64,000 bases of DNA. Source: Escherichia phage JM10. This document shows positions 1,927 to 62,152 of this stretch, piece by piece (positions within the stretch are counted from its first letter, which is position 1; every line of letters starts with the position of its first letter). The translations under genes were made by a program, and so were the position numbers. The DNA is taken from the sequence record PP400777. The stretch is one strand, 5' to 3'. The notes beneath the pieces were generated by a model, which saw only the letters and a program-made list of their open reading frames with translations, did no database searches and was not told where the DNA came from.

Positions 1927-4182
1927 TTAAAGCTTACAAGCAGAACAATCTTCAGCTTTTGGAGTTTCTAGTTCATAGTCGTCAGTACCAGAACCGTCGC
2001 GAGTATTATGATAGTAGAGGTTTTTACCGCCAAAGTACCAGAAGTAAAGCAAATCGTCAAGCATTACAGACATTGGCACTTTACCTTTCTCAAATACTGC
2101 AGGGTCATAGTAAGTATTAGCAGAAGCAGATTGGCACACCCATTTCAACATGATAGCAACTTGGGTCAAATAAGGTTTATTACCTTTCTTAGCAAGTTTC
2201 CACGCATAGTCGTAAAGACTCATGTTATGTTCGATATTAGGAACAACCTGTCGGAAGTTGCCTTCTTTAGATTCTTTAATACTTACTGGACCGCGTGGGG
2301 GCTCAATCCCGTTTGTAGAGTTTGATACTTGACTGCTTGACTCACAAGGCATGAGTGCAGACAACGTTGAGTTACGAATTCCATGTTCTTTGAGTTCAGC
2401 TCGAAGTTCTTCCCAGTCACAGACGTAGTTCGGGGCTGCGATTTGGTCAATCTTTTTATTGTACCAGTCGATAGGTAATTCGCCTCTAGACCATTTAGTG
2501 TCTGAATAATACTCGCAACATCCTTTTTCTTTGGCGAGTTTGATTGATGCTTTGATAAGGCCATATTGCAATCTCTCAAACAATTCATGAGTCAAATCGT
2601 TAGCGTCTTCATATGAAGCAAAGTTGCTTGCTAACCATGCAGCATAGTTCGTCACACCAACACCGAGGTTTCGACGCTTTTTAGCTTTTAAAGCTTCTGG
2701 AACCGGATAATCTTGATAGTCTAACAGGTTATCAAGTGCACGTACTTGTACTTCAGCAAGTTCATTAATTTTATCTTGGTCCTGCCAATCAAAGTTATCT
2801 AACACGAATGCAGACAACGTGCACAACCCGATTTCAGCATCAGGACTATTCACATCATTAGTTGGAATAGCGATTTCACAACATAAGTTACTCTGACGAA
2901 TTGGAGCTTTTTCACGAATAAATGGAGTGTAGTTGTTCGTGTTATCAACGAATTGCGGATAAATTCGAGCAGTACCAGAGCGTTCAGTCATGAACAATTC
3001 AAAGAGTTCTAGTGCTTTGATTCTTTTCTTTCTGATTGTTGGGTCTTTTTCAGCTTTCTCATAAAGCTCACGGAATTTATCTTGATCTTCAAAGAACGAG
3101 TAATACAGTTCGCCTGACATTTCGTGAGGGCTAAATAAAGTAATATAATCATTTTTACCAAGGCGTTCCATCATAAGGTCATTAATCTGAATTCCGTAGT
3201 CCATATGTCGAATACGGTTTTCATCCACGCCTTTGTTATTTTTCAGAACCAATAGGTTCTCTACTTCTAAGTGCCACATTGGATAATACGCTGTAGCAGC
3301 ACCACCACGAATACCGCCTTGAGAACAAGATTTTACTGCAGTTTGGAAATGTTTCCAGAATGGAATAACACCCGTATGTCGAACTTCACCCATACCGATC
3401 TTAGAACCTTCTGCACGAAGCATACCAACGTTGATGCCGATACCGGCTCGTTTAGAAATATATTCAATAATTGATGCTGAAGTTTTGTTAATAGATTTTA
3501 AGGAATCACCGGCTTCAATAACTACACAACTAGAGAACTGGCGAGTTGGAGTACGAGCACCTGCCATAATTGGGGTTGGCAATGAAACTTGATGAGTAGA
3601 AACGGCATCATAAAAACGAATAATATGTTTCAAACGGTCATGAGTTTCGTCTTGGTGTAAGGCCATGCCAATAGCCATGATAGCAAACTGTGGAGTTTCA
3701 TAAATCTTCCCAGTTGTTTTATCTTTAACTAGATATTTTTCTTTAAGCTGCATAGCACCAGCATAAGTCAGGTCAAAGTCTCGTTCATGTTTAATCTGTG
3801 AATCGAGATAAATGATTTCTTCTGCTGAATATTGAGACAACAACTCAGGATCGTATTTGCCTTCATTAACACAGTAAGAAATATGGTCGATAAAAGCAGG
3901 CGGTTCAAACTGCCCATATACATCTTTACGAAGTGCAAACATTAGCCCTTTGGCGGCGACATAATGATAATCAGGTTCTTCGACAGAAATCAAGTTAGCT
4001 GCAACTTTAATACAAATCTTCTGAATATCTTTGGTGCTCATCCCATCGACAAGATGGGTCTTAATTTCTTCGTATAATTCATATGGGTCGATTTGTGTTC
4101 CTTCACATTGCCAAGTTAAGACTTGAATAATTTTCTGTGCATCAAAATTTTGGGATACACCACTGCTCTTAGTTACTTGCAT
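1927..4182 (-). CDS. nrdA: Aerobic ribonucleotide reductase large subunit NrdA
   Basis: 751-aa ORF; class I RNR alpha motifs (ATP-cone N-terminus, NLCCEI active-site region, C-terminal CSACKL); T4 position upstream of nrdB. Confidence 0.93.
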   Translation of the reverse strand: MQVTKSSGVSQNFDAQKIIQVLTWQCEGTQIDPYELYEEIKTHLVDGMSTKDIQKICIKVAANLISVEEPDYHYVAAKGLMFALRKDVYGQFEPPAFIDHISYCVNEGKYDPELLSQYSAEEIIYLDSQIKHERDFDLTYAGAMQLKEKYLVKDKTTGKIYETPQFAIMAIGMALHQDETHDRLKHIIRFYDAVSTHQVSLPTPIMAGARTPTRQFSSCVVIEAGDSLKSINKTSASIIEYISKRAGIGINVGMLRAEGSKIGMGEVRHTGVIPFWKHFQTAVKSCSQGGIRGGAATAYYPMWHLEVENLLVLKNNKGVDENRIRHMDYGIQINDLMMERLGKNDYITLFSPHEMSGELYYSFFEDQDKFRELYEKAEKDPTIRKKRIKALELFELFMTERSGTARIYPQFVDNTNNYTPFIREKAPIRQSNLCCEIAIPTNDVNSPDAEIGLCTLSAFVLDNFDWQDQDKINELAEVQVRALDNLLDYQDYPVPEALKAKKRRNLGVGVTNYAAWLASNFASYEDANDLTHELFERLQYGLIKASIKLAKEKGCCEYYSDTKWSRGELPIDWYNKKIDQIAAPNYVCDWEELRAELKEHGIRNSTLSALMPCESSSQVSNSTNGIEPPRGPVSIKESKEGNFRQVVPNIEHNMSLYDYAWKLAKKGNKPYLTQVAIMLKWVCQSASANTYYDPAVFEKGKVPMSVMLDDLLYFWYFGGKNLYYHNTRDGSGTDDYELETPKAEDCSACKL

Positions 4183-30846: not shown

Positions 30847-31947
30847 TTACGCTGTGAAGATTTTATCCCACATCGCAACAACTGCATCTCGGTTATACTT
30901 CTTCCATACTGCTTCAGCACGTTTAACTCGAGCTTCGTATGTGTCAGTGAATTCTAATACAGCTTTTGTGTAAAGCGCAACTACTTCTTTCTTAGGAGTA
31001 GAGGAATCAATTTCTACACGCACAGTATCTGGGTCGTATTCGAATGTCGCATGAGGATAATCCTTAAAAACTAACTGGATTACAGGGACACCTTTAGAGA
31101 TGGCTTCAATAGAACTATTCTCTACCGTACCTGTGTCAGGACACGTATTAATAAGTGCTTTAGCTGTTTTAAGACGTTCCATGATTTCACTGTGTGGAGC
31201 ATCAATAATAACAGGATATTTAGCTGGTGGGGCCCATTTGCTTGGACAATAACCAATACCATTTTCGCCTAGTGCTTTAATTGCTTCGAGAGCAACATCA
31301 GTACGACGCATTTTAGTGTCATAACGTTGTGCACTAATAATCAGATCAGTCGCCGGAAGAACTTCAGGTTTCTCATTCAAACAAATAACCGGATAATCTT
31401 CGGCTTCAAACAACGGATTTGCTCGCCAATAATCATAATCAATTTTGTCAGTCAGACCTGAAGTCATATAACAATATTTGCGTTCAAATTCACGGAAGGC
31501 TTTAGTAGGAGCATAACTCTTACCACCGTTCTTATGAATTTGAATAGTCTGGTCCCAAATTTGAACAATGCCACGAGATACCGGTTCAAATGGTGTTGCC
31601 ATAAAATTCTTATGAACTTTAGAGAGACCTGCGTCTTTAATTGCCTGAACGGTTAGTTTAGTCGGTTCCATAGTAACAACAAAATCGTATTCATGGATGC
31701 CGGCTAGTTCAACAATCTTACGAGCCATAGTATAACTCATACCTAGACTGAATTTTGTCAGATGACCAACAGGATGATGATTAACCTTCCAATCACCAAA
31801 TGTGTCATTATCAAAACCGATATAATCAATATCAGCACCGATGGACACAAGATATTTCAACACATTTAAATGTACTGCTTCAAGACCACCTTGTACACGG
31901 TCAGGATTAAATGGGACTGCGCGAGATGGGATAAACATAACTTTCAT
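30847..31947 (-). CDS. GT-B fold (GT4-like) glycosyltransferase; candidate DNA hmC sugar transferase
   Basis: 366-aa ORF; C-terminal motif TGTVENSSIEAISKGVPVIQ resembles the E-x-F-G...EA-M/I-A/S-x-G-x-PVI nucleotide-sugar binding motif of retaining GT-B enzymes; sits where T4 has gene 60/mobA. Confidence 0.65.
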   Translation of the reverse strand: MKVMFIPSRAVPFNPDRVQGGLEAVHLNVLKYLVSIGADIDYIGFDNDTFGDWKVNHHPVGHLTKFSLGMSYTMARKIVELAGIHEYDFVVTMEPTKLTVQAIKDAGLSKVHKNFMATPFEPVSRGIVQIWDQTIQIHKNGGKSYAPTKAFREFERKYCYMTSGLTDKIDYDYWRANPLFEAEDYPVICLNEKPEVLPATDLIISAQRYDTKMRRTDVALEAIKALGENGIGYCPSKWAPPAKYPVIIDAPHSEIMERLKTAKALINTCPDTGTVENSSIEAISKGVPVIQLVFKDYPHATFEYDPDTVRVEIDSSTPKKEVVALYTKAVLEFTDTYEARVKRAEAVWKKYNRDAVVAMWDKIFTA

Positions 31948-31959
31948 AATTAAGCCTTA

Positions 31960-31991
31960 TTAAAATTAAAATGAAGCTCCCGAAGGAGCTT
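31960..31991 (-). terminator. Terminator-like hairpin at the end of gene 39
   Basis: AAGCUCC-UUCG-GGAGCUU hairpin overlapping the stop codon, followed by CAUUUUAAUUUUAAU. Confidence 0.55.
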
Positions 31992-33810
31992 AGGACATCC
32001 ATTCTTTACGAAGTTCTGAATCATCACCCATCAACATTTCAAAGAGTTCTTTCCAATTTTCAGGAAGTTTAACTACGTCGTACACAGGGTTCTGAATCAT
32101 TTCACGATATTCTGACTTTTCAAGGGAGCCCAATCCCTTGATGTATCGAATACTATGCTTAGGCAGTGTATCTTTAACTTCTTCATACTCAGCTACAGTA
32201 TAAAACCATTTTTGAGTTTTGCCAATTTGTGCAATAATTACAGGCGTTTTAACAAAGCGAATACGTCCTTGTTCGAACAATTCAGGCCAATTACTAAAGA
32301 AAGCAAGCAAAGCCGGATAAATACTTCCAAGACCGTCATGATCGGCATCGGTCATAATTGCAATATTACGATAGTTCGTATTCTCTGCCTTTTCACCAAG
32401 AATAAGACCTGTGATAGCACAGATATCAAAGAGCTCTTTGTTCTTCATCATATCAGCATATGACATACCCCAGCTATTCATCACCTTACCACGTAACGGG
32501 AATCCGCCGTGTAGTTCACGGTCACGAACATCAATGAGATAACCAATTGCAGAATCACCTTCTGTTAAGAACAATGTCGTATCTGCATCTTTACCACATT
32601 GGTTAGCTTTAATATGCTTATGAACCTTAGCTTTAGTTGCCTTTTTAGCTGCTTTAGTTTCTGCAGCCTTTTCTGCCGCCAATTTACGAGCTAATGCTGC
32701 TTCAATTATAGGCATTAAAACTGCTTCAGAATTCAAAATATTTTTTGCCAATTTTTTTGTATCTAATTTAATATGCGTCCGAATTTCGCCATAAGGACTT
32801 GTTAAACGCTCTTTTGTTTGGGAATCAAAACGAAGGTTCTTCATTCCACGAACGAACATTAAGAGAGTGAGACATTCCTTGATGCGCGCTTTAGTCACGT
32901 CGATTTTATATTTGCGTTTAATAGCCGGAATTAATTCTTCGCAAATGTCGTCCATCACACATTCAATGTGATGACCACCGTTTTTGGTATGGATGTTATT
33001 CACATAAGTTAAATGACGGAAGCCATCTGGTGACCGTCCAATGGCAATAGAGCATCCGTCTTGTTCTTGAATGATGGTCTCTTCATCAAATTGTTTAGCA
33101 AACTTCTTAAAGTTACCTTGAATCTTTTTGCCATTAAATTTAAATTCAATACCAGGATAAACAACCGCCAATGTTTGGAGACGGTCTATAGTAATATCTT
33201 GGTATATTTTTTCAAATTGATTCATTTCAAAATGTGAGAAATCAGGAATAAACTCGACCTTAGTACCGTTGTTTTTAGACGGCTTAGATTTCCAAGAAAT
33301 ATTATCAGCGTTATTAGAACAATTAACGGTCAATTCATTTTTACCATCTGAAGTAGTGCCAACAAAAGAGACAGAAAAAATATTTGTTAATGAAGAACCG
33401 ACACCGTTTTGTCCACCCGTAACACGTTCTTTGTCGTCACCAAAGTTGCCACCGGCTTTTGTACGTGTCCACGCCGCAACTGGTCCTGGAATTTCTTCTC
33501 CTTCAGGAGTAATAACTGTTTCTTGAGGAATACCTCGACCATTATCTTCAACAGTCACTTTATTAGAATTTAAATCAATACTAACGGAAATTTTATTAGC
33601 ATATTTGAAATTGGTTCGAATAGCTTCGTCTACTGAGTTGTCAATAATTTCATCAATTAATTTGAGAACACCTGCAACATATTTAACCTTTTTAAATTCA
33701 CCGAATAGGAAACGTTCTTGTTCTTCATTGGCAACACTTCCAATATACATGCCAGGACGCTTCAAACAATGCTCTTTATCAGATAGCATTTCAATTTTAT
33801 TATCAATCAT
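31990..33810 (-). CDS. 39: DNA topoisomerase II large subunit, uninterrupted gp39+gp60 fusion (GyrB-like)
   Basis: Start taken at ATG (MIDNKIEMLSDKEHCLKRPGMYIGS; the listed ORF begins 5 codons earlier at a TTG); about 606 aa, i.e. includes the segment that T4 encodes separately as gene 60. Confidence 0.88.
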   Translation of the reverse strand: MIDNKIEMLSDKEHCLKRPGMYIGSVANEEQERFLFGEFKKVKYVAGVLKLIDEIIDNSVDEAIRTNFKYANKISVSIDLNSNKVTVEDNGRGIPQETVITPEGEEIPGPVAAWTRTKAGGNFGDDKERVTGGQNGVGSSLTNIFSVSFVGTTSDGKNELTVNCSNNADNISWKSKPSKNNGTKVEFIPDFSHFEMNQFEKIYQDITIDRLQTLAVVYPGIEFKFNGKKIQGNFKKFAKQFDEETIIQEQDGCSIAIGRSPDGFRHLTYVNNIHTKNGGHHIECVMDDICEELIPAIKRKYKIDVTKARIKECLTLLMFVRGMKNLRFDSQTKERLTSPYGEIRTHIKLDTKKLAKNILNSEAVLMPIIEAALARKLAAEKAAETKAAKKATKAKVHKHIKANQCGKDADTTLFLTEGDSAIGYLIDVRDRELHGGFPLRGKVMNSWGMSYADMMKNKELFDICAITGLILGEKAENTNYRNIAIMTDADHDGLGSIYPALLAFFSNWPELFEQGRIRFVKTPVIIAQIGKTQKWFYTVAEYEEVKDTLPKHSIRYIKGLGSLEKSEYREMIQNPVYDVVKLPENWKELFEMLMGDDSELRKEWMS

Positions 33811-34486
33811 TAGATTTTCTCTCAAATTGCATGACTATATTTTTGTATGAACCTTCCGGAAATCCACGTTTAATGCTTTCTTTAGCAAATTTCCCAACCT
33901 TTGGTTTATCCAATTCTAACCATAATTTATATAAAGCAGATTCATATTCCCATACAGGACTTTTACGATTTTTAAGCCCACACTTTATAAGTGCTTCCTT
34001 TGTATGTTTCTTATTATAAAATGGATTGTTTTTGCCACTCATTGCTTTAGAATGTTCCGGGCGCTTAATTCCATACATCGGATTAAGATCGCCTTTCTTG
34101 ATAACGGATTGTAGTTCAATAGTTTCTTCAGAGTGATTGTGTCCATAAAATGGATTTAACTCTTTTGAAACATCCATACCAAAGCACCCATCGACTGTGG
34201 CATAAGACATGTTGAAAAATTTTTCAGATTTAACCACATTATGCAATTTCTGGTAATACAACTCACAAAACGTCGCTTCTTCCCGTGTATCAAATTCGCC
34301 AATAATACATGAATCAAATAAATGAGGATTATCTTTTATCTCTTTATCATAAATTTGTTTATATTTTTTCGACTTTACCGTACCATGATAGTGATTGTTT
34401 GTATGTTTATCAAGATAAGTAGACCCTATATAAAACGGTGGCAACTTATCGCCTGTGTATATTGTTAAGTATGTTATGTATTTCAT
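33803..34486 (-). CDS. GIY-YIG family homing endonuclease-like protein with NUMOD3 repeats (seg-like)
   Basis: N-terminal YITYLTIYTGDKLPPFYIGS (GIY-YIG-like) and repeated NPFYGHNHSEET / NPMYGIKRPEHSKAMSGKNNPFYNKKHTKEA NUMOD3-type motifs. Confidence 0.65.
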   Translation of the reverse strand: MKYITYLTIYTGDKLPPFYIGSTYLDKHTNNHYHGTVKSKKYKQIYDKEIKDNPHLFDSCIIGEFDTREEATFCELYYQKLHNVVKSEKFFNMSYATVDGCFGMDVSKELNPFYGHNHSEETIELQSVIKKGDLNPMYGIKRPEHSKAMSGKNNPFYNKKHTKEALIKCGLKNRKSPVWEYESALYKLWLELDKPKVGKFAKESIKRGFPEGSYKNIVMQFERKSND

Positions 34487-34513: not shown

Positions 34514-34535
34514 AGCAAAAAGGGCCGAAGCCCTT
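34514..34535 (-). terminator. Terminator-like hairpin
   Basis: AAGGGC-UUCG-GCCCUU followed by UUUUGCUUU on the minus-strand transcript, overlapping the stop of the 141-aa ORF. Confidence 0.6.
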
Positions 34536-51244: not shown

Positions 51245-51607
51245 TTAAAAGAATTTAAATTTTTTCTTGGTTCGTTCATTAAAAGCTTGTTGTACTTGCA
51301 TTGTAACACATTTTTCAACATGTGGTGCAAGTTCTGCTTTTCTGTCCTGGTCAAGAACTGCAAAGTCCATTACGATTTTACCATCAACCCAGTCTAGTTT
51401 TGTAATATAGACTATATGATGAGAACCGTCTTCAAGTGTAATCAGAATCTCTTGAATGACATTTTCCATTGCTGAACGGATAATTTTAAGAGATTCATTA
51501 AACACTCGTTCTTTGCGAATGTCTTCCCCTTCCGAAGAAGGGGATTCATCAACGATTTCTAGATTTAAATCATCGAGATTATTCATCGAAATCTTCCATT
51601 TCGTCAA
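51245..51607 (-). CDS. 40: Head vertex assembly protein gp40 (positional)
   Basis: 120-aa ORF between uvsX and 41; start may be the ATG at 51586 because the listed start overlaps the uvsX end by 29 nt. Confidence 0.55.
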   Translation of the reverse strand: MTKWKISMNNLDDLNLEIVDESPSSEGEDIRKERVFNESLKIIRSAMENVIQEILITLEDGSHHIVYITKLDWVDGKIVMDFAVLDQDRKAELAPHVEKCVTMQVQQAFNERTKKKFKFF

Positions 51608-52751
51608 GGTCGTTTTCTATATCTGCTGCAGACGGAGCATCAGAAGTTTTAACCGGAACTTTAGTTGTTGCTTTGCAATTAATAAGGTCGTTAACAGCGT
51701 CATCAACTTCTTTAATAGAAGAGATAGCACCTAGTTTATATTTAGTTTCAATTGCATCTCGGAAAGGCTTATGTTTAAACAACGGCCCCCAGAATTCTAC
51801 ACAATCAGTAGCTTTAGCACGCCATGATTTTTCTTCACGAATCATTTCACCTGTTTCTTCGTCAAGGAATTCACGAGCATACCACCCGGCTTTAGGCTTA
51901 ACTACAAAACCAATTTCAGTTGCCATTTCTAACAAGCCACTGAATGGGTCAATACCGCCATCAAAATTAACCGTGATCGGGAAAGTAGATTTTTCTTTAA
52001 CAGTACGAGATTTTTCAGCTTTCAACGTGAAGTCATAACCGGTCAATTCTGTACCTTCTTTAACCTGACGTTTAGAGATAAAAAATACCGTGTTGGCAGA
52101 ATAAAGAATACCTGTACCACCGCCCATAATCTCTTTAGGATACAATCCGCCGATTTCCATTGCGGTATGGTTAATTGCAACACACGGAATATCTTTAATA
52201 GTCAGATACGGGGTCACAATACGGAAAAGAGATTTAAGTGCCTTAGCACGAGACATATCACCTACAACTTTCTCGTTCAACGCATCTTCGGTTTCTTTCT
52301 TAGATGCAGTATTACCGATTGAATCGATAAAGATAATAACTTTATCACCACGTTCAATCGCGTCAAGCTGATTAGTCATATCGACTTTAAGTTGTTCGAC
52401 AGATTGAATCGGAGTATGAACTACACGGTCTAAATCAACACCCATTGAACGAAAATAAGATTCTGAAGCACCGAATTCTGAGTCATAAAACAAACAGATT
52501 GCATCTTTATATTTCTTCATATACGCTGCAACCATAGTTAGTCCAAACAATGTTTTAAAATGTTTAGAAGGTGCAGCAAAAATAGTCAAGCCTGATTGCA
52601 ATCCTGCATTCAGAGCACCGCCTAGTGCAATATTCAACATCGGAATACGAGTAGGGACTTCATCACGATTATTAAACAGCTTAGACTTAGTCAAGTCTGC
52701 AGTCATTTTAGAAGTAGAAGCTTTAATCAGACGAGATTTTAAATCAGACAT
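51579..52751 (-). CDS. uvsX: Recombinase UvsX (RecA homolog)
   Basis: 390-aa ORF; RecA-like ATPase core; acidic C-terminus. Confidence 0.92.
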   Translation of the reverse strand: MSDLKSRLIKASTSKMTADLTKSKLFNNRDEVPTRIPMLNIALGGALNAGLQSGLTIFAAPSKHFKTLFGLTMVAAYMKKYKDAICLFYDSEFGASESYFRSMGVDLDRVVHTPIQSVEQLKVDMTNQLDAIERGDKVIIFIDSIGNTASKKETEDALNEKVVGDMSRAKALKSLFRIVTPYLTIKDIPCVAINHTAMEIGGLYPKEIMGGGTGILYSANTVFFISKRQVKEGTELTGYDFTLKAEKSRTVKEKSTFPITVNFDGGIDPFSGLLEMATEIGFVVKPKAGWYAREFLDEETGEMIREEKSWRAKATDCVEFWGPLFKHKPFRDAIETKYKLGAISSIKEVDDAVNDLINCKATTKVPVKTSDAPSAADIENDLDEMEDFDE

Positions 52752-52850: not shown

Positions 52851-53399
52851 TTAACGAGCCCATTTGATGATTTCTGTAATCAAATCATTACGTTCGCTTG
52901 CATTAAATCCTATAACTTTGTTAGCACCATCATGATTAAGTAATTGATACGTTTGGATTTTGTTATGAATTGCAAACTCTTCAAAATGTGAAATGACTGT
53001 ATTAAAACCGAATGAAGACAAAGTAATAAGATCGTCTTCAAAACTTTCAGTCATTTCGTTACGTGTTAAAATAATTGTGAACACATCATGGTTTTGGCAA
53101 AGACGAACATAATCCTGTTCATAAACGTCAAGAACCGAGTCCGCATCTTGTCGAATACGTCCATAAACCCAGTTACTAATATATCCACGGTCTAATAGAT
53201 AAATCTTAGTAGGGTCTAAATAATTCAACATCGTTTCGAAACAGCCAACTTCATTTCGAGACTTAACATCGAAACGTCCATCAACTGTTCGTTTAGGGAA
53301 ATCAATCTTTACATATCTTTCACTAATTTCCATTATGTCATTAATGAAAGTTGTTTTACCAGCATTATCCGGGCCATCTACTAAAATAATTTTAGCCAT
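52851..53399 (-). CDS. P-loop nucleotide kinase (thymidylate-kinase-like)
   Basis: Walker A VDGPDNAGKTT near the N-terminus and a DRGYISNWVYG segment resembling the DRY..S..AYQ motif of dTMP kinases; 182 aa; occupies the T4 beta-glucosyltransferase locus. Confidence 0.55.
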   Translation of the reverse strand: MAKIILVDGPDNAGKTTFINDIMEISERYVKIDFPKRTVDGRFDVKSRNEVGCFETMLNYLDPTKIYLLDRGYISNWVYGRIRQDADSVLDVYEQDYVRLCQNHDVFTIILTRNEMTESFEDDLITLSSFGFNTVISHFEEFAIHNKIQTYQLLNHDGANKVIGFNASERNDLITEIIKWAR

Positions 53400-53400
53400 T

Positions 53401-54300
53401 TTATTCCTCGATTACGACATCTTCGTATTTAGGTATATTATACGGTGAAGAAATTAAAGCGTTAAAGTAGATGAACTCACCAAGACCTGGATGGAATACT
53501 TCTTCAGGATTTTCGAAATATTGAATCTTCGGACGTCCTTTAAGAATTTGATAGTACTCAGTTTTAGTTGGTTTAAAAATTCGAATCAACGCTTCTTCAG
53601 GATACTTATTTCTGTCGAAGCTATTATTTGGATCGGTTATATAAAGCGGTTGGCCTAATTGAATTGCACATTCAACCACTTGTTCAAAACGATAGCACGG
53701 GTCACTAATTCGAAATGGATGAAAAATACCATCTAGATGAATAGGAGCCAAATCACCTACAAGACGCTGCATGATGGAAGGACGTATAACTTTCTGCGTT
53801 ACGATAATCTTATTACCATCTGCACCTGCGTTAACCAGCACTTCTTTTTGACGTTCATTCAACACAGTAGTTTGAAGTGAACGATTAACCGACAACATAT
53901 CAGTTTTTAAGAATTCGTCAATATAAAAACGTGGTTTATTAGGGTCTGCAGTGATATTGAAATTGAATTCCACATCAAAAGCGCCGTCATATCCGGTGAT
54001 ATCTGTGATTAGAAAATCACAATCATAATAAGCAATTAATGAATCAACCACAAATTCATTTTCAGACCAGAAATATTTACGAGTGTTATACGCGTTATCT
54101 TTATACCATAATGGAACAAACTTAAATTCTGGGAAAAGACGTTCGCATTCTTTAATATCGGATGCATTACGTGGATATGTAATCACATCGCCTGGATTAG
54201 CACGGTGCAAATGAAGTTGGAAGTTGCCATCCTTAAGGATAGCATACTGTCCAGTTTCATAAGACCGCATACTCAAAATAGGTACGCGGAAAATAGCCAT
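53401..54300 (-). CDS. Hypothetical protein (299 aa) at the beta-glucosyltransferase locus; possible DNA-modification enzyme
   Basis: No recognisable catalytic motif by eye; ATGA-overlapped with gene 42; not similar to what I recall of T4 Bgt. Confidence 0.45.
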   Translation of the reverse strand: MAIFRVPILSMRSYETGQYAILKDGNFQLHLHRANPGDVITYPRNASDIKECERLFPEFKFVPLWYKDNAYNTRKYFWSENEFVVDSLIAYYDCDFLITDITGYDGAFDVEFNFNITADPNKPRFYIDEFLKTDMLSVNRSLQTTVLNERQKEVLVNAGADGNKIIVTQKVIRPSIMQRLVGDLAPIHLDGIFHPFRISDPCYRFEQVVECAIQLGQPLYITDPNNSFDRNKYPEEALIRIFKPTKTEYYQILKGRPKIQYFENPEEVFHPGLGEFIYFNALISSPYNIPKYEDVVIEE

Positions 54301-55016
54301 TAGTCAAGGAATCCTTTAACATAATCAAAATCACGTTCAAACACATGGGCACTTACCATGGTATGAGTATAATCACCAACTTCTACACCACATTCGTTAG
54401 CGATATAATGAAGTAATTTTCCTTGGAGATAAAAATCCAACTGCATAACAACAGCACAGTTCTGAGAACGCATATGACAGTGGGTATAAAGCTTACCATC
54501 ACGAATATAATAAGTCACTGAGTCAGTACATGGATATTCAAGCGTTTCGTCTGAATCAAGCAAAGCCTGATCAGAACTTTCTAGAATTTGGAACACAACT
54601 CTTCGAGAGTTAGGCTTCTCTTTAAGTTCTTTTAGAAGAGTTGGTAATTGGGCCGCAATGCGAGGACCATAGAAAGTGTTGAAGTTCGCCGGCAAAACAT
54701 CTGATTTTGGTTTAGAAATAAATTTAGCGACATTAGGATATGCCTTAAACGCTTCTTCTGCGTTGGTACCACCAGAAATCATAAACTTCCAGAAGTCTTC
54801 GGCATATTCATAAGAGATGCGGTTAATACGTGGGTCGGTCATTTTGAATGATGATGGAGTGTCAACAACTACTGTCATAGACCCAATTTCATTACAACGT
54901 CCAATACGAGAATCAGTTACGAATTCCGGGTTTTCTAAAATTTCACGATTGACTGCTTTAAATGCGGTTTGAAAATCTGCGGCTTTGATATATTTCATTG
55001 TGTTATGTTTTCCCAT
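54300..55016 (-). CDS. 42: dCMP hydroxymethylase gp42 (thymidylate-synthase fold)
   Basis: TS-family active-site pattern ...YPCTDSVTYYIRDGKLYTHCHMRSQNCAVVMQLDF (Cys nucleophile and RS.N segment); position between uvsX and 43 as in T4. Confidence 0.7.
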   Translation of the reverse strand: MGKHNTMKYIKAADFQTAFKAVNREILENPEFVTDSRIGRCNEIGSMTVVVDTPSSFKMTDPRINRISYEYAEDFWKFMISGGTNAEEAFKAYPNVAKFISKPKSDVLPANFNTFYGPRIAAQLPTLLKELKEKPNSRRVVFQILESSDQALLDSDETLEYPCTDSVTYYIRDGKLYTHCHMRSQNCAVVMQLDFYLQGKLLHYIANECGVEVGDYTHTMVSAHVFERDFDYVKGFLD

Positions 55017-55058
55017 GTTTACCTCAATACAATTTATTATATACTCAATTCGTAAAGC

Positions 55059-55298
55059 TTATTTGAATTTCTTGACAATGTTGATATAACGTAAAGCTTC
55101 AGCATCGATACTTCCAAGAACACTATGAAGAAATGCATCAGCGTAGTATTCCAATTGAACAGGTTCTTTAATCACTTTAGCCGCTTTAGTTTCAAACAGG
55201 CCCATCAGGGCCTGTTTAAGAATTTGTTCATTAGTGTTCAGTTTCATAGTCAAAATCTCTTCATTAAGTTGGTGGTTAAAAGTTTTTCTAGAAATCAT
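55059..55298 (-). CDS. Hypothetical small protein (79 aa)
   Basis: ORF with ATGA overlap to the Cys-rich gene upstream. Confidence 0.45.
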   Translation of the reverse strand: MISRKTFNHQLNEEILTMKLNTNEQILKQALMGLFETKAAKVIKEPVQLEYYADAFLHSVLGSIDAEALRYINIVKKFK

Positions 55299-56455
55299 TC
55301 CGGGTACCTCAAAGCGTCATCAGAGTTAGTTATATCAATAATAGATATAGAGTTTTCTGCTAACCCGTTTTTAGATAATTGACGTTTATAATATCTTTCA
55401 CAATATGTACACGTCGTCCCGCAGATTTCATTAGCACAATCGAAATCTGGATGTCTGAACCACCTTTTTTCTAAAAAGCCATCTAACAAAGAGGTTTCAA
55501 TATTTACTGTATGTGAAAACTCAGTTTCGTTTTCAAGAGTGAAAATAGTCTCTAAAGGCTTCCACAGTTCTAACAAATTACCTTCAAACTTTTCAGAAGC
55601 GTATGCTTCAAGAACTTTCAAAATGTAGTCTGTACTACCTGTACGTCCTGAAACTTTGAATTGAGTGATACCAATATCATTATAAAGTTTCAAATCTTGA
55701 GGACGAACAAAACGAGTTCTCAACCAGTTAAATGGGTCTGTATCACGAGCTTTAATACAGTGCTGCATAGGATATCCGTTTAAGGATTTAGCATCATCAG
55801 CTGTAACATCAGTACTATGGAAAATATAGCAAGAGTCACGATAGCTACAATGTGTTGTATACCCTTTACCAGCATTAGAACAGAACTCATTTACAAGAAC
55901 TTCAAATATTATATTGTTCTTATTGCAAAACTCTGCTGCACGCTTCAGGAAAGAAACTGAACGGTTCTTATGAATTCCACAGCAGACCTTTTTGATATTA
56001 TATTGGTCATGCAAGTATTTGATTTGAGTTACAGCATCGACATGTAGAATTGTTGAAACTTCAATCTCAATGTCTTTATTGACTTCACGAACAATTTCCA
56101 TAACAACAGGGTTAGCGATAGTAATACGCCATACGCCTATTGACCAAAGATACTGAACATAATCCTGAATAGCTTTCTTCTTCCACTCAACTAGTTCTCT
56201 TTTTGAACCAGGATTTATCGTGTTGAGTGTATAGTTAAAGCAAATACCTAATTCGTTACAACGTTTAACGTAATCTTCTAACATCTTTTTGTCAACGTCA
56301 GGAAGCCTAAAATCAGGTCTGGCTGCTACAAAAGCCATTTCTCTTGTAGAGCCGTATACTTCGTTTATCAAGCTATTAGGATAAGTTTTATTGAGCTCTA
56401 CGATTTTATCAAGAAGAGCTAAATCAAAATTCGTTCCGATTTTAAAAGTATTCAT
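55295..56455 (-). CDS. Cys-rich protein of unknown function (386 aa), part of the sugar-nucleotide module
   Basis: 13 Cys including clusters VCCGIH, EFCSNAGKGYTTHCSYRDSC and a C-terminal CANEICGTTCTYC (C-x4-C-x3-C-x2-C); a metal or Fe-S site is possible. Confidence 0.5.
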   Translation of the reverse strand: MNTFKIGTNFDLALLDKIVELNKTYPNSLINEVYGSTREMAFVAARPDFRLPDVDKKMLEDYVKRCNELGICFNYTLNTINPGSKRELVEWKKKAIQDYVQYLWSIGVWRITIANPVVMEIVREVNKDIEIEVSTILHVDAVTQIKYLHDQYNIKKVCCGIHKNRSVSFLKRAAEFCNKNNIIFEVLVNEFCSNAGKGYTTHCSYRDSCYIFHSTDVTADDAKSLNGYPMQHCIKARDTDPFNWLRTRFVRPQDLKLYNDIGITQFKVSGRTGSTDYILKVLEAYASEKFEGNLLELWKPLETIFTLENETEFSHTVNIETSLLDGFLEKRWFRHPDFDCANEICGTTCTYCERYYKRQLSKNGLAENSISIIDITNSDDALRYPE

Positions 56456-56511
56456 TTTTTTGCATCTCGCGTTAATTGATGCGATGGTTTTTGCAGGTCT
56501 TACTTAAATTA

Positions 56512-56898
56512 TTATAGATTAGGTTTATATGATTTAAATGTTTCGAATTCGCCTTTATTCATAAGAGCTTTGAATTCGTCAGGACGCATAGCTTTGTCGT
56601 CGATAATCCAATCATATACTGGTTTATGTGTTAGCAAATTATGGTACTTCAAGCCAATGTTTGCCAAGTTCTGAATCAGACTTGGGAGAATGTCAATTGC
56701 TATACGTCCAGGACCTACTGACTTCATACCGCGAGCAGTGTAAAGCGTTATTGTATGCCCTGCATCATACAGAGCATTAATGGCAGACACCATTTCGACG
56801 TCTGGTTTGAAGTTCACGTAATCACGATTGTTATTCCACTCTGTTATACAATCATCGACATCAAAACAAAGATTAAGCATGTTTTCTACACGGTGCAT
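56512..56898 (-). CDS. HAD-superfamily phosphatase (small, about 128 aa)
   Basis: Motif I-like FDVDDCIT near the N-terminus, motif II TLYTARG, motif IV-like IIDDKAMRPDE; start taken at the ATG overlapping the upstream stop (TAATG) with GGGAA SD. Confidence 0.6.
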   Translation of the reverse strand: MHRVENMLNLCFDVDDCITEWNNNRDYVNFKPDVEMVSAINALYDAGHTITLYTARGMKSVGPGRIAIDILPSLIQNLANIGLKYHNLLTHKPVYDWIIDDKAMRPDEFKALMNKGEFETFKSYKPNL

Positions 56899-58583
56899 TA
56901 GATTCGTTCCCATTGATGAGTGATATCGCCACCGATTGGACGATAGGAAACACCAGTTTCTTTATCAGTTAGTACCCATTTACCAGGATTTTTTGTAATC
57001 AGAGTAGCCGTTACAGGTTCTGCTACGTCATAACTAATAGAGCCGTCCTGAAGTACACGGCCCATGTTACGTAATTGCTTAGTCAGAAGTTCCATACCTT
57101 TATAATATGCGGCTACCGCTTTAAGTGGATTATTCTTGAAATAACCACCTAATGCAATCCAGATAATTGCCACTGCCAAATGATGATACTCGTTAAACGA
57201 ACTCATCTTTCCATATTTGTAAACTAATGGATTGATGTTAATAGTCACATTACAAGTTGTTTCATCAATAGTAAACTGTCCCCAGGTCGGATTAGCATTG
57301 AATTCATCATAACCTGAAACAGCATAAAGCACTTTAGCTTCATCATACAATTTTGGCCCGTAAATCTTGGTTTCGCCAAAATATCCACGAGGGTCGATAA
57401 ACTTGACTTCGCCGTTATCAGTAATCATAGTATTACTGAAGTTCGGGTCACCGTGAATAACAGAGTACTGCCCCTGAGAACGGTTATGATAACGAATAAG
57501 GTGTTCTAAAGCTTGTTTCAGCATTGGCTTCAGACGTCCAATCTTAGTGTAGTTCACATGTGTGATTTTACCAAATGAATCAATCAATGGTTGAATGCTT
57601 TCACAACGATCAATAACTTTCGTATAGAATTCTTTAGTGAAATCACGACGAACAGTTTCAGGACTTACAAAATAAGTGTCTGTGCTGAATTTCAGTGCAT
57701 CTAAAATTGCATCAACAATTTGTGGACGAGCAAGACTTGATTTGGATTTAATATATTCAAATGCCGGCTTACCTTTAATGCGTTCCATTTCAAAGTTATT
57801 TTCATTAACAGAAACTAACTGAGGAACTGAATCTGATTTCACTTTAAGATACCATGAAATCTCATCTTTCTGAAGAGCTCGACCTTGTTCAGTTAATGCG
57901 AATTTAGTTACAGTTTCTTCACCAATTTCAACTGCATTAAAACTACGATTAAGTTCACGAACTTCATGAGCTTTTTCAAGTTTAGGCATATCACCTAAAT
58001 CAATTATATTCATAAGCTCTGATTTATTGAATGCGCCGCTGTAAAGGAATTCTACAAAATCACGTCCTTTGCAGTATTCATGAATTTCCTCATCGGTAGA
58101 ACCCATATAGAATTCCCAGTCTTTGAACTGATAAATTCCTACAACATTACCACCTGTTGAACCTACGTTAGTGATATTTTCACCGTCGAAATTATAGCGA
58201 CATTCGTCACCCTTAACATAGATTGCGTTGACATTCCAAGACCATGAACCAAAATCAGGAATAATATCGCACCAGTTAACAATTACGTTATGGCCATCTA
58301 AATCTTTGTGTAATTTAGCAAGAGCATAAGCAGATCCGTATGCTTCATCAACTGTACGAATAGTCACATTGAACCCTTCTTGCTCACAATAAGCTCGAAC
58401 AGTTTCAGCAAATTTTGAATGAACTACTACAATAATTTCATCTGCGCCAAGGTCAGAATAAATTGTATACAAATTGCTCAGAATAGTGTCTTGTTTATAG
58501 TTAACAAGCACCTTAGGAATATGATGCGTTATTGGATACAAACGAGTTGCCAGTCCAGCACCAAGAATAACAGCTTTTTTCAT
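56898..58583 (-). CDS. Bifunctional sugar-1-phosphate nucleotidyltransferase (RmlA/GalU-like) / APH-fold sugar 1-kinase
   Basis: N-terminus MKKAVILGAGLATRLYPITHHIPKVLV matches the G-x-G-T-R-L signature of sugar-1-P nucleotidyltransferases; C-terminal VIHGDPNFSNTMITDNGEVKFIDPRGYFGE matches the HGD...N / D-x-E motifs of aminoglycoside/choline/anomeric-sugar kinases; 561 aa. Confidence 0.7.
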   Translation of the reverse strand: MKKAVILGAGLATRLYPITHHIPKVLVNYKQDTILSNLYTIYSDLGADEIIVVVHSKFAETVRAYCEQEGFNVTIRTVDEAYGSAYALAKLHKDLDGHNVIVNWCDIIPDFGSWSWNVNAIYVKGDECRYNFDGENITNVGSTGGNVVGIYQFKDWEFYMGSTDEEIHEYCKGRDFVEFLYSGAFNKSELMNIIDLGDMPKLEKAHEVRELNRSFNAVEIGEETVTKFALTEQGRALQKDEISWYLKVKSDSVPQLVSVNENNFEMERIKGKPAFEYIKSKSSLARPQIVDAILDALKFSTDTYFVSPETVRRDFTKEFYTKVIDRCESIQPLIDSFGKITHVNYTKIGRLKPMLKQALEHLIRYHNRSQGQYSVIHGDPNFSNTMITDNGEVKFIDPRGYFGETKIYGPKLYDEAKVLYAVSGYDEFNANPTWGQFTIDETTCNVTININPLVYKYGKMSSFNEYHHLAVAIIWIALGGYFKNNPLKAVAAYYKGMELLTKQLRNMGRVLQDGSISYDVAEPVTATLITKNPGKWVLTDKETGVSYRPIGGDITHQWERI

Positions 58584-58624
58584 GTTGTGGTCCTCATTGG
58601 TAAGTAGGAGTATTGTACACTATT

Positions 58625-58768
58625 CTAGTTAAAGCATTCATACTTCGCTTGTAGTCCAATCATAATCCATCCGATTATAAGAGTCGGAACCATTACTGGA
58701 GCCGTTAAGCTCCAGTAGATAGTCATGACAAGCATCAATAGTAAAAGTCCTATTGTTATTGCTTTCAT
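58625..58768 (-). CDS. Small membrane protein (47 aa), not in ORF track
   Basis: MKAITIGLLLLMLVMTIYWSLTAPVMVPTLIIGWIMIGLQAKYECFN; start overlaps the SIS gene stop (ATGA). Confidence 0.45.
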   Translation of the reverse strand: MKAITIGLLLLMLVMTIYWSLTAPVMVPTLIIGWIMIGLQAKYECFN

Positions 58769-59400
58769 TGCTCGCCTCGTAACATGGCACCTAGTGCACC
58801 GCCTGGATGGAACTTAAGGAAGTCATTAGAGGTAAATCCACGTTCAGACGAAAGGTTGATAGCAAACGTATCGATAAGCGCTAACAACAATGTAGTGGAC
58901 ATAGTCGGAGCCAGAGAATTCTCATCAACCTCTACTGCGATGCCTGTACAGAACGTATAATCAAAAAGAGCTTCGTATTCTTGTGGAATGTCAGGGTTAC
59001 AATGTAACAGAATCTGTTTAACCTGAGGACGAATCATACGAAGATGTTTAGCAACACCTATCATTTCTTCAGTCTTACCAGAACGACTGATGTGAACTAA
59101 TACATCATTAGGTGCAATAAATCCTGCGTCACCATGAGAATAATGCCCGGTGTTCAAATACATGCTAGGAATACCGAGTGAAGCAAAAGTCTCGGAAGCT
59201 TTAGTTGCGATATTAGCATTCTTACCAACACCTGTAATAATTACTCGGCTTTCATAATTACTAAGTCCCGGGCGTCGAAGAGTTTCTAGAATAGCATTAT
59301 AACGAGCAGGGTTTTGACTAATTACTTTGGCCATAGCGGCCAAAGAAGAAGCTTGTTTTATGATTGCGTCAATAGCGATAGTAATAGGAGTAGTTTTCAT
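58765..59400 (-). CDS. Arabinose-5-phosphate isomerase-like SIS-domain protein (KdsD/KpsF N-terminal domain, no CBS pair)
   Basis: SRVIITGVGKNANIATKASETFASLGIPSMYLNTGHYSHGDAGFIAPNDVLVHISRSGKTEEM and ...LAPTMSTT...FHPGGALG align motif-by-motif with the KdsD SIS domain as I recall it (GKVVVMGMGKSGHIG..ATFASTGTPSFF..HGDLGM..DVVIAISNSGESSE ... APTSSTT ... SHPGGALG); 211 aa. Confidence 0.75.
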   Translation of the reverse strand: MKTTPITIAIDAIIKQASSLAAMAKVISQNPARYNAILETLRRPGLSNYESRVIITGVGKNANIATKASETFASLGIPSMYLNTGHYSHGDAGFIAPNDVLVHISRSGKTEEMIGVAKHLRMIRPQVKQILLHCNPDIPQEYEALFDYTFCTGIAVEVDENSLAPTMSTTLLLALIDTFAINLSSERGFTSNDFLKFHPGGALGAMLRGEQ

Positions 59401-59440: not shown

Positions 59441-62152
59441 TCAAAAATCGAACATATCGAACAGAGATGCTTTCTTCTCGTAATCGAGTTTCGCTGCTGA
59501 TGTGAATCCTTCAAGTGGTTTAATAAATGTCTTCTCAAGGAGAACAGTGTAGTCCATCCAATGAAGTACGTCGTCTTTAATTAAATCTGTGATTTCAGTG
59601 CCAGAAGGCCATGCGATACATTTATCACCGAATGGGTTTCCTTCACGTAAAGGCAGAACATATACTTTTTCACCTTCTACAACTTGCGGTGCATCGATAT
59701 TACCTTTGATAGCCCGGTTATACGTCAGAATTCCACGAATATGGAACGGGCATTTGGGACCAGGGAATCCACCGACATCATATTTAGCAATGTTATTCGC
59801 AGAAGATACCGACGCGATGCTAATATAATTCAATTGACGGAATTCTTTTTCAAACTCTTTAAAATATTCTTGTAATGATTCTTCACCTTCTTGAAGCATA
59901 CGACGAATACATTCTTTAAGAGCTTTCTGTACTGCTTTAGGGGTCGAAGATTTCTGAGTCTCTAGACCCATGATTTTGAGTTTAGGCTCAGCGTAACGAG
60001 TGCCTTCCATATCCCACACGTTTAATGCATAACGTTTCTTACCAGTCCAGAATCCACCAATACCTTTAGAACCGAGCGGAGGACCAGCGATAGCTTCTCG
60101 GTCCATGAACATTAAGTGTTGTTTATTGTTCATGTATTCACACATTTCACGGAAACCTCTATCAATAGCAGGTTCCATACGTTCACGAGCGAACTTATCT
60201 AAGAAGTCTACCCAATGGTTGGTATCACGGAATTTAGATTCACCAACCTTATCGATAATTTTATCAGCAGATACGTAAATAGAGTCTGTATCACCATAAA
60301 GAACGAAAGCTTCACCTTCTGTACCACAAACTTCATTCAGATATTCATTAACTTTACGTTCAATCCACTGTAAAGCCATTTGCCCGAATGTTGTGATTGC
60401 AGTAGCATTACGCAAATCATAATAACGGAACCAAACGTTTCCAAGTGCACCATAAAGCGAGTTGATGAGCAATTTACGGTTAATCTGTGCAGTCATACCT
60501 GCAACTTCAGTACGTTGAGCTCTAAACAACATTTCATTAAGAGATTTAGCAGACAACTTTTTAATCTTTTCTTTAATCTCAACGCTGAAGTCGAAACGAT
60601 AATCAACATCTAACGGTTCGTCAACAGAAAGATTAGGATTATGCAATGCCTCTTTAATTATTTCACCATTACGTTGAGCTGCAAGCATGTAACCTTTATG
60701 TTCTTTACGTTGATTAAAGACCTTAGTGATTTCAGTTGGAACTACACCATCACGGTCTTTATAATACATCATGCCGTTAGGAGAACAACTGTACACATCT
60801 GAAGGACGTTCAGCGATTGCGTTAATATAATCATGCAGTGGAGCTACTTTAAACGTTCCTGCTATTGTTTCCGGGCTAATATTCACTTGGCGAATAATAC
60901 TTGGATACAGAGATGTAAGGTCGAAACTCATTACATATTTGTATCGATTTGGAATAGGTTCCTTAACAAAAGCGCCAGGATAAGGTTGAACTGGGTGAGA
61001 ACGACCTTGTGGAATCACCTTGTTCTGTTCTTTAAGGCTATTAAAAATAATAGCATCCCATGTTTTAATTGGGCTAAACACAGATTGAATCTGTATCTTA
61101 GCATAATAACCCATGTCCAAACTCAAGTTGATGAACTGACGCTTAGCATCAATTTGCAATACACGATACACGTCGATAATGTTATAAGAAATATATCGTT
61201 GGTGATTGCTTTCACGAAGCTTAGAAATAGGGCCGTCATATTTCAGTTTACCAACGTTCAATTCAAATTCTGAAATGTAATCCAGAGAATACGACGGTTG
61301 ATTGGTAAAAGAGAATTTTTTGTAAAGGTCAATGTAATCAAGAACAGAGATACCGAACAATGTAATGATTTCACGAGAACCATACATGTTTTCGATAACT
61401 TTAACACGAGTTTTACGATGTGGTGATAAACGTTTCGCAGTAGATTCGCCAAAAATATTCTTGATTCGGTTATACACATATGGAATATCAAATGACTCAA
61501 CGTTCCATCCAGTCAAAATGACAGGAGTTTTCTGTTGCCAGAAGTTGAGATATTCCATCAACAATTCTTTTTCGTTATCGAACGGCATATAAATGATTTT
61601 ATCAATAATTTCGGATGGAACTTCATCACCGCCTTGTTCTTGAAGCTTAGCCGCAATTTCGATAGACCATTCTTCTACATTACCATACGGAGAATTCAAT
61701 AGATCAAATACGTAGAACCTGTCGTCAATTGAGTCATAATGGGTGATAGCATCAATCGGATGTTTTGCTTGTGACGGCTCAGGGAACCCATCCGGAGATG
61801 TTACTTCGATGTCGAAGTTAGCCACACGAATTTTTGTATGGTCGTATTTGATTTCATAGTTATAAGTGTCAGACAAATACGCCAATTTGAAATCGTCCAT
61901 GCCAAGTGCTTCAAGTCCGATATCTTCCATGCGTTTAATCCATTGGGAGGCATCACGCATATTAGCGAACAACTTACGAGTACACGGCTTACCGTAGATA
62001 TCGAAATATTTCGTAGCCTGACTTTCTGGACAATGAGCAAACAGTGATGGTTTATATTCTACTTCACGAGTACGTTCACGGCCATTAGAATCGATGTAAC
62101 GTTCAAAAATTGAATCACCAATCTGTTCAACCGTTAAGTAAAATTCTTTCAT
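59441..62152 (-). CDS. 43: DNA polymerase gp43 (family B)
   Basis: 903 aa; exo motifs FDIEV and YNIIDV, pol motifs SLYPSII and YGDTDS; N-terminal sequence matches what I recall of the RB69 polymerase. Confidence 0.97.
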   Translation of the reverse strand: MKEFYLTVEQIGDSIFERYIDSNGRERTREVEYKPSLFAHCPESQATKYFDIYGKPCTRKLFANMRDASQWIKRMEDIGLEALGMDDFKLAYLSDTYNYEIKYDHTKIRVANFDIEVTSPDGFPEPSQAKHPIDAITHYDSIDDRFYVFDLLNSPYGNVEEWSIEIAAKLQEQGGDEVPSEIIDKIIYMPFDNEKELLMEYLNFWQQKTPVILTGWNVESFDIPYVYNRIKNIFGESTAKRLSPHRKTRVKVIENMYGSREIITLFGISVLDYIDLYKKFSFTNQPSYSLDYISEFELNVGKLKYDGPISKLRESNHQRYISYNIIDVYRVLQIDAKRQFINLSLDMGYYAKIQIQSVFSPIKTWDAIIFNSLKEQNKVIPQGRSHPVQPYPGAFVKEPIPNRYKYVMSFDLTSLYPSIIRQVNISPETIAGTFKVAPLHDYINAIAERPSDVYSCSPNGMMYYKDRDGVVPTEITKVFNQRKEHKGYMLAAQRNGEIIKEALHNPNLSVDEPLDVDYRFDFSVEIKEKIKKLSAKSLNEMLFRAQRTEVAGMTAQINRKLLINSLYGALGNVWFRYYDLRNATAITTFGQMALQWIERKVNEYLNEVCGTEGEAFVLYGDTDSIYVSADKIIDKVGESKFRDTNHWVDFLDKFARERMEPAIDRGFREMCEYMNNKQHLMFMDREAIAGPPLGSKGIGGFWTGKKRYALNVWDMEGTRYAEPKLKIMGLETQKSSTPKAVQKALKECIRRMLQEGEESLQEYFKEFEKEFRQLNYISIASVSSANNIAKYDVGGFPGPKCPFHIRGILTYNRAIKGNIDAPQVVEGEKVYVLPLREGNPFGDKCIAWPSGTEITDLIKDDVLHWMDYTVLLEKTFIKPLEGFTSAAKLDYEKKASLFDMFDF

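Follow-up and report, generated by a model that had tools for sequence, protein, structure and literature searches.

A GT-B glycosyltransferase gene between rIIA.1 and gene 39 of Escherichia phage JM10, a likely chain-extending arabinofuranosyltransferase acting on 5-hydroxycytosine DNA

In phage T4, the alpha- and beta-glucosyltransferases (GT72 and GT63) are enzymes of the GT-B fold that draw on a uridine diphosphate (UDP)-sugar to modify 5-substituted cytosines once the DNA has been replicated, transferring glucose from UDP-glucose onto the hydroxymethyl group of 5-hydroxymethylcytosine (hmC). In T2 and T6, a further enzyme, the beta-alpha-glucosyltransferase, adds a second glucose, giving gentiobiosyl-hmC. 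Homologues of the latter enzyme have been tabulated (PMC6024577). A different chemistry was found in phage RB69, whose DNA, according to tandem mass spectrometry and nuclear magnetic resonance, contains mono- and di-arabinosylated 5-hydroxy-deoxycytidine, the disaccharide beta-D-Araf-(1-3)-alpha-D-Araf (Araf, arabinofuranose) being carried on O5 (PMC13326640). In this article, a stretch of 64,000 nucleotides (nt) from Escherichia phage JM10 (sequence record PP400777; hereafter the window) is analyzed with regard to an open reading frame (ORF) of 366 amino acids (aa) located between rIIA.1 and gene 39, which we consider, with a probability of about 70%, to encode a chain-extending beta-arabinofuranosyltransferase, as Lee et al. 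proposed in 2026.

The gene is already known: an arabinosyltransferase role was proposed in 2018 (PMC6024577), the orthologue in the BASEL phage Bas46 is annotated in its record, a nearly identical protein was crystallized in 2025, and a role in the second step was put forward in 2026 (PMC13326640; PMC13390438). A preliminary description of the window, made from its letters alone, had regarded the protein as the transferase most likely to place the sugar on hmC DNA, a view that matches the 2018 proposal and is outdated with respect to the base and probably also with respect to the step.

One indication of the step comes from phages of described chemistry, in which the number of copies of the family, named here after the RB69 orthologue ORF003c (gp3), tracks the number of arabinoses on cytosine: Thanatos has one arabinose and no copy, RB69, NP and Bas46/47 have two arabinoses and one copy, and DLP3 has three arabinoses and two copies. 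Thanatos DNA is mono-arabinosylated (PMC13326640), the Mosigvirus NP contains mono- and di-arabinosylated forms at a ratio of 1:4 (PMC13390438), and Bas46 and Bas47 are doubly arabinosylated (PMC12923530). RB69 gp3 was labeled 'beta-arabinosyltransferase 2' by Lee et al., who proposed the second-step role for it (PMC13326640). The DLP3 proteins gp77 and gp76 ('beta-arabinosyltransferase 2/3') belong to the same family as the 366-aa protein, matching it from end to end and sharing its conserved blocks (43% and 41% identity, respectively, and 57% to each other). In vitro, gp76 and gp77 together transferred one more arabinose from UDP-Araf to the genomic DNA of RB69, and the family therefore acts on already arabinosylated DNA, whereas no single glycosyltransferase acted on plain 5-hydroxycytosine (5hoC) DNA (PMC13326640); for RB69 gp3, the same activity is a proposal. 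DLP3 differs from the window in that its two paralogues lie within the arabinose module and its cytosines carry three arabinoses, while the only copy in the window is about 21.5 kb away from the module's own glycosyltransferase and Mosigvirus DNA has two arabinoses.

The distribution of the family is narrow. The 1.8-kb region around the ORF is 98-99% identical to many Mosigvirus genomes (among them vB_EcoM_G2469, mar005P1, PhAPEC2 and the O157 typing phages), and the protein is 100% identical to that of phage vB_Eco_F27, 99.5% to RB69 ORF003c (NP_861693) and 98.9% to Bas46_0103, which is labeled 'putative hmC-arabinosyltransferase' in the Bas46 record. The orthologues in RB69, Bas46 and HY126 share the length of 366 aa and the position between rIIA.1 and gene 39, and their 2-5 substitutions (98.9-99.5% identity) amount to nothing of substance. 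Members of at least 95% identity occur in 155 phage records, and those of Acinetobacter phages are about 43% identical. The family as a whole was found in 211 phage records at 267 places, nearly all of them in Mosigvirus-type coliphages and Shigella phages or in Acinetobacter phages, with one place per coliphage or Shigella phage and two per Acinetobacter phage among the matches listed. Its diversity is low, with 5 clusters at 90% identity in a word-indexed search versus 138 for the second glycosyltransferase of the window described below, and an exhaustive HMMER search of 1.84 billion representative proteins returned only 12 members. No homologue was detected at E <= 1e-3 in Thanatos or in the module-bearing phages of Serratia, Klebsiella, Proteus and the Dhakavirus group. 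A homologue outside the Mosigvirus and Acinetobacter lineages is found in one record of Tegunavirus (Yersinia phage group). In Shigella phage JK45 (locus L005, 1501-3104), the full 366-aa gene is followed by a 136-aa ORF that tblastn joined to it as a second matched piece and that looks like a partial tandem copy, either a real duplication or an assembly artefact.

The ORF is a genuine gene rather than a chance reading frame, because its product matches PHROG 8302, a family without assigned function, over residues 1-366 (E = 2.7e-223), recurs in the 155 records mentioned above and has a crystallized counterpart of 99% identity. An AAGG Shine-Dalgarno-like sequence lies 7 nt 5' of the ATG, and the GC content across the ORF (0.38-0.40) is the same as that of its surroundings. 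Scans of the protein against Pfam, NCBIfam and PADLOC gave no match, even at E <= 10 for Pfam and NCBIfam. The conserved C-terminal segment to which the preliminary description had drawn attention, TGTVENSSIEAISKGVPVI, was confirmed together with the ORF itself; it corresponds to residues 272-290, where conservation within the family is highest, and its residues T274, E281, A282, G286 and P288 do not vary across the family. In an alignment of 11 family sequences that takes in two very distant members, G20, R208, R214, T268, T274, E281, A282, G286, P288, E303, P306 and R340 are invariant.

Among the PDB sequences, the 366-aa protein is 99% identical (5 substitutions) to 9IQZ ('phage HY126 glycosyltransferase') and 9IR0 ('phage HY126 glycosyltransferase with UDP'), both released on 2025-07-16; the title of the latter is the basis for stating that the protein binds UDP. 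A search of the PDB sequences with the family profile matched the HY126 protein alone. The AlphaFold2 (AF2) model of the 366-aa protein is poor (predicted local distance difference test (pLDDT) score 59.6; shallow alignment) and was used since it matches the HY126 crystal structure. With this model, the fold search returned the HY126 structures first and then bacterial GT4-type GT-B enzymes, including PimA (2gej/4nc9), BshA (3mbo/6n1x), sucrose-phosphate synthase (6kih) and BH4 glucosyltransferase (5zer). Two Rossmann-like domains with a nucleotide-sugar cleft are present, and the predicted fold is GT-B, closest to bacterial GT4-type enzymes. This bears out the GT-B and GT4-like assignment of the preliminary description. 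To T4 alpha-glucosyltransferase (Agt, GT72), which that description had named as sharing the fold class, neither detectable sequence similarity nor close structural similarity was found. The distance from the bacterial enzymes is also considerable: identities are 10-16%, the Pfam GT4 models miss the ORF, the EX7E motif appears to lack its first Glu, and the proposed acceptor is DNA. Weak Pfam matches appeared in a few of the 11 aligned members (Glyco_transf_4, 1.6e-7; Glycos_transf_1, 2.3e-5; GT4-conflict, 1e-3). In the C-terminal Rossmann domain, residues 272-290 are presumed to form the loop and helix that bind the nucleotide, and they may map onto the EX7E region of GT4 enzymes. In what we take to be the EX7E register of PimA, the invariant E281 fits the second Glu, position -8 is G273, and the nearest Glu is E276 at -5. 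Thomas et al. (2018) had aligned Gly-20 and Arg-207 of ORF003c with the phosphate-binding Gly-15 and Arg-204 of T4 alpha-glucosyltransferase (PMC6024577).

The donor and the base for such an enzyme can be traced to a module of eight genes, all on the minus strand, between uvsX (51579-52751) and gene 43 (59441-62152). The phage is a Mosigvirus; this stretch of its DNA is 97.9% identical to that of RB69, and its proteins are each 97-100% identical to RB69 gp45-gp55. The module is complete (52851-59400), so that a 5-hydroxy-dCMP synthase and a UDP-arabinofuranose pathway share the genome with the 366-aa ORF; in the RB69 reference record, sequencing errors split the 299-aa gene into ORF046/047 and the 561-aa gene into ORF052/053. 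The thymidylate-synthase homologue is 98.7% identical to RB69 gp48. In an alignment of Escherichia coli ThyA, T4 gp42, the window protein and DLP3 gp80, T4 gp42 has RSND, the window protein and DLP3 gp80 have RSQNC (D169N), and N177D is found in all three phage proteins; the active-site numbering of the ThyA sequence agrees with the residues listed in PMC13326640. Lee et al. (2026) reported 5-hydroxy-dCMP as the product of gp48 and D169N as a predictor of this activity, DLP3 gp80 being an experimentally verified 5-hydroxy-dCMP synthase (PMC13326640). Given D169N in the synthase homologue, a substitution that marks 5-hydroxy-dCMP synthases, 5hoC and not hmC is predicted as the modified base. 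The preliminary description was thus right to see the ORF as part of the DNA-sugar modification system of the phage, while hmC, the acceptor in GT72, is not the acceptor indicated here by D169N/N177D and the RB69 chemistry.

The preliminary description overlooked a second GT-B enzyme of 299 aa, whose gene lies directly downstream of the synthase gene, in the position of the T4 beta-glucosyltransferase gene (3' of gene 42). The gene is intact, its product has an AF2 model with a pLDDT of 94.9, and no Pfam model matches it. BLASTP between the two glycosyltransferases of the window detected no similarity, and at the sequence level they are therefore not paralogues. The 299-aa family is present in 348 phage records, beside the synthase gene among the matches listed, and its holders comprise Mosigvirus and Dhakavirus as well as phages of Klebsiella, Enterobacter, Edwardsiella, Yersinia, Pectobacterium, Serratia, Proteus, Providencia, Shewanella (Thanatos) and Acinetobacter; it occurs in all arabinosylating lineages.

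In the favored reading, phage DNA would be made with 5-hydroxycytosine, the 299-aa enzyme would attach the first alpha-D-arabinofuranose to O5, and the 366-aa enzyme, using UDP-Araf, would add a second, beta-linked D-arabinofuranose to O3 of the first. This would yield beta-D-Araf-(1-3)-alpha-D-Araf-5-O-dC, which is the main modified base in RB69-like phages. The 366-aa protein would thus be a soluble GT-B enzyme that supplies an accessory layer of the anti-restriction coat and would not be the first to glycosylate the base; what we infer is that its acceptor is a sugar on DNA, which linkage it makes and which of the two steps comes first. In contrast to the T4 glucosyltransferases, which it resembles as a phage GT-B enzyme, it most likely extends a sugar already present on 5-hydroxycytosine. 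The best functional analogy is the T2/T6 beta-alpha-glucosyltransferase, likewise a second glycosyltransferase that takes the first sugar as its acceptor and yields a disaccharide. The two are likened by function alone and differ in the sugar (glucopyranose versus arabinofuranose) and in the base (hmC versus 5hoC).

Several points weigh against assigning the second step to the 366-aa enzyme. He et al. are said to have crystallized the HY126 glycosyltransferase in their 2026 work, the PDB contains no counterpart for the 299-aa protein, and they may therefore regard the former as the main transferase of the pathway. No assay of the 366-aa enzyme or of its RB69, HY126 or Bas46 orthologue was found in the literature covered, which stops short of He et al. 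(2026) and Mahler et al. (2025). The same literature reports no first-step activity for any member of the 299-aa family: DLP3 gp79 failed to act on 5hoC DNA (PMC13326640), and the Thanatos homologue of the 299-aa protein, TH1_063, was reported as a UDP-xylose pyrophosphorylase. Furthermore, the extension by DLP3 proteins requires both paralogues together (PMC13326640), whereas Mosigvirus has one, and the phyletic argument draws on few phages of known chemistry.

The strongest competitor, although an unlikely one, is that the 366-aa enzyme is the primary transferase, placing the first arabinose directly onto the modified cytosine and perhaps performing both steps, as in the preliminary description and the 2018 proposal. 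That proposal drew on hidden Markov model and HHpred similarity of ORF003c to GT-B enzymes including T4 alpha-glucosyltransferase (PMC6024577), and the label of the Bas46 orthologue, the PDB title given to the 99%-identical HY126 protein and the lack of demonstrated transferase activity for the 299-aa enzyme point in the same direction. However, the proposal assumed hmC and overlooked ORF046/047, split by sequencing error in the RB69 record. The phages listed above as lacking a homologue nevertheless keep the 299-aa GT-B enzyme beside the synthase, Acinetobacter phages with two copies have three arabinoses, and DLP3 gp76/gp77 act on DNA that is already arabinosylated (PMC13326640).

It is improbable that the 366-aa protein works only in a complex of two glycosyltransferases or as a processivity or scaffold partner of the 299-aa enzyme, or that it acts on nucleotides before replication. 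The joint requirement for gp76 and gp77 in DLP3 (PMC13326640) speaks for the first of these variants, but residues of catalytic type are conserved (G20/G21, R208, R214, E281 and E303), the orthologue binds UDP according to the title of 9IR0, the DLP3 homologues modify polymeric RB69 DNA (PMC13326640), and in Mosigvirus the 366-aa gene is unlinked from that of the 299-aa enzyme, at a distance of about 21.5 kb. A non-DNA acceptor, such as host lipopolysaccharide (LPS), a lipid carrier, a protein or a small molecule, is very improbable, for although the nearest structural neighbors are lipid, LPS or small-molecule GT4 enzymes (PimA, BshA, WaaB and BH4 glucosyltransferase) and one GenBank record names the protein phosphatidylinositol mannosyltransferase, such names are automatic fold-level transfers at 10-14% identity, the family is nearly confined to phage groups with the 5hoC/UDP-Araf module (the Tegunavirus record being a possible exception), the Acinetobacter phage genes are embedded in the arabinose module, and homologues modify DNA in vitro (PMC13326640).

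If second-step extension by the 366-aa enzyme is accepted, it has a stereochemical consequence. The alpha and the beta linkage presumably draw on a single UDP-Araf donor, in which case the two glycosyltransferase families must differ in outcome, one retaining and the other inverting. Both enzymes of the window resemble retaining GT4 enzymes, and the fold alone cannot assign either outcome. With UDP-alpha-D-Araf as the donor, a tentative and on balance doubtful possibility is that the 366-aa protein is an inverting furanosyltransferase built on a GT4-like scaffold without the first EX7E Glu, whose acceptor is a sugar in the major groove and not a flipped-out base. If true, this would represent a mechanistically new kind of DNA glycosyltransferase, and the HY126 structures may already settle the matter.

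The features of the locus and of the module are collected in Table 1.

Table 1. Positions of the features of the window considered in this article
Feature	Position	Strand	Remarks
rIIA.1, 66 aa	30554..30754	-	downstream neighbor of the 366-aa ORF, followed by rIIA
GT-B glycosyltransferase ORF, 366 aa	30847..31947	-	ATG start; orthologous to RB69 ORF003c/gp3 and to the HY126 enzyme; candidate for the second (beta) DNA arabinofuranosyltransferase
Most conserved family block, residues 272-290	31078..31134	-	TGTVENSSIEAISKGVPVI; family alignment
Hairpin, 18 nt	31974..31991	-	AAGCTCCTTCGGGAGCTT; perfect 7-bp G+C-rich stem, UUCG loop; overlaps the gene 39 stop, 26 nt upstream of the ATG of the 366-aa ORF
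Gene 39, topoisomerase II large subunit, undivided	31990..33825	-	upstream neighbor of the 366-aa ORF; covers T4 gp39 and T4 gp60
Nucleotide-kinase-like protein, 182 aa (RB69 gp45)	52851..53399	-	identity to RB69; PMC13326640 Table 1
GT-B enzyme, 299 aa (RB69 gp46:47)	53401..54300	-	proposed first (alpha) arabinosyltransferase on 5-hydroxycytosine
Thymidylate-synthase homologue, 5-hydroxy-dCMP synthase (RB69 gp48)	54300..55016	-	D169N/N177D; near-identical to PDB 9IQC/9IR2
ORF, 79 aa	55059..55298	-	
U32-family protein, 386 aa (RB69 gp50)	55295..56455	-	
AfhF-like HAD phosphatase, 133 aa (RB69 gp51)	56512..56913	-	no Pfam match; PMC13326640
Nucleotidyltransferase and kinase bifunctional protein, 561 aa, AfhE-like (RB69 gp52:53)	56898..58583	-	makes UDP-arabinofuranose; PMC13326640
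SIS-domain arabinose-5-phosphate isomerase (RB69 gp55)	58765..59400	-	

The genomic position of the 366-aa ORF can be compared with the T4 gene order, which is rIIA.1, 60, 60.1, mobA and 39. The preliminary description had placed the ORF where T4 has gene 60/mobA. In the window, residues 5-480 of the 611-aa gene 39 product match T4 gp39 and residues 479-611 match T4 gp60. Since both T4 proteins are matched, gene 39 is undivided and the ORF occupies the 54-nt spacer between gene 60 and rIIA.1 of T4. Replacement of gene 60/mobA by the ORF was considered and rejected, as the homologue of gene 60 is, from the alignment, the fused 3' part of gene 39. The position between rIIA.1 and gene 39 therefore stands, while gene 60 is retained in fused form; the remoteness of the ORF from the T4 agt and bgt positions was likewise confirmed by comparison with the T4 gene order. 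The true start of gene 39 is probably the ATG at 33810. Phage JS98 has the 299-aa enzyme and lacks an ORF003c homologue, and its 588-bp unannotated spacer between rIIA.1 and gene 39 (locus L002, 2437-3024) has no similarity to the 366-aa ORF, so no remnant of it was detected. This spacer holds a 107-aa ORF (2423-2746, minus strand) unrelated to the glycosyltransferase. Within the T4-like phages, this junction seems to be a site where insertions vary.

A 'terminator' is marked within the matched 1.8-kb region in records of related phages, and a second hairpin similar to that of Table 1 (AAGGGCTTCGGCCCTT) lies at 34520-34535; the two may be RNA-stabilizing or attenuating elements between early genes. 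No convincing promoter was seen in the 42-nt gap upstream of the 366-aa ORF, which is probably co-transcribed with gene 39 through the hairpin. A homing-endonuclease-like gene of 227 aa (33803-34486, minus strand), with NUMOD3 motifs and matches to the PHROG homing/HNH endonuclease families, is located on the other side of gene 39. It coincides with a patch of low GC content (0.32-0.33), its end overlaps the gene 39 start, and it looks like a recent mobile insertion because Bas46, JS98 and T4 have no gene at the same junction.

Within the module, the U32-family protein is the most conserved, with 82% identity between the window and Shewanella phage Thanatos-2; in the same comparison, the synthase reaches 71%, UvsX 68%, the AfhE-like protein 54% and the glycosyltransferase 48%. 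All 13 of its 13 cysteines are invariant. The gene was found in 221 records of Enterobacterales and Shewanella phages and in 0 Acinetobacter records, though 57 of these have the 299-aa enzyme. Acinetobacter is a strict aerobe. The U32 gene is followed at once by a gene for a type II chorismate mutase in Erwinia phage Virsaitis27 and Thanatos-2 (loci L008, 4492-6002, and L009, 4501-5891), with Pfam CM_2 scores of 44.6 and 32.8 bits against a cut-off of 27, and the equivalent 79-aa ORF of the window has no CM_2 match. Chorismate mutase makes prephenate, and RlhA makes 5-hydroxycytidine in 23S rRNA. The U32 proteins UbiU/UbiV, TrhP and RlhA have been tied to O2-independent, prephenate-dependent hydroxylation, RNA pyrimidines included (PMC10990095; PMC6599085), and the ThyA-like synthase uses O2 (PMC13326640). 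By analogy, gp50, which Lee et al. did not discuss (PMC13326640), may allow 5-hydroxycytosine to be formed anaerobically, as a backup to the O2-dependent synthase.

The number of arabinoses on cytosine changes which host defenses are evaded or triggered, among them type II and type IV restriction, DNA glycosylases and CRISPR-Cas. For example, MluCI cuts the di-arabinosylated DNA of RB69 and does not cut the tri-arabinosylated DNA of DLP3 (PMC13326640). A further study reports that Bas46 without an arabinosyltransferase named Aat is viable and sensitized to a plasmid-borne defense system (PMC13216743). A role in setting chain length would correct the labels 'hypothetical protein', 'hmC-arabinosyltransferase' and 'phosphatidylinositol mannosyltransferase' now attached to this family. 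If the 366-aa gene does set chain length, it would aid in predicting the modification state of Mosigvirus therapy phages from their sequence, as well as in phage engineering.

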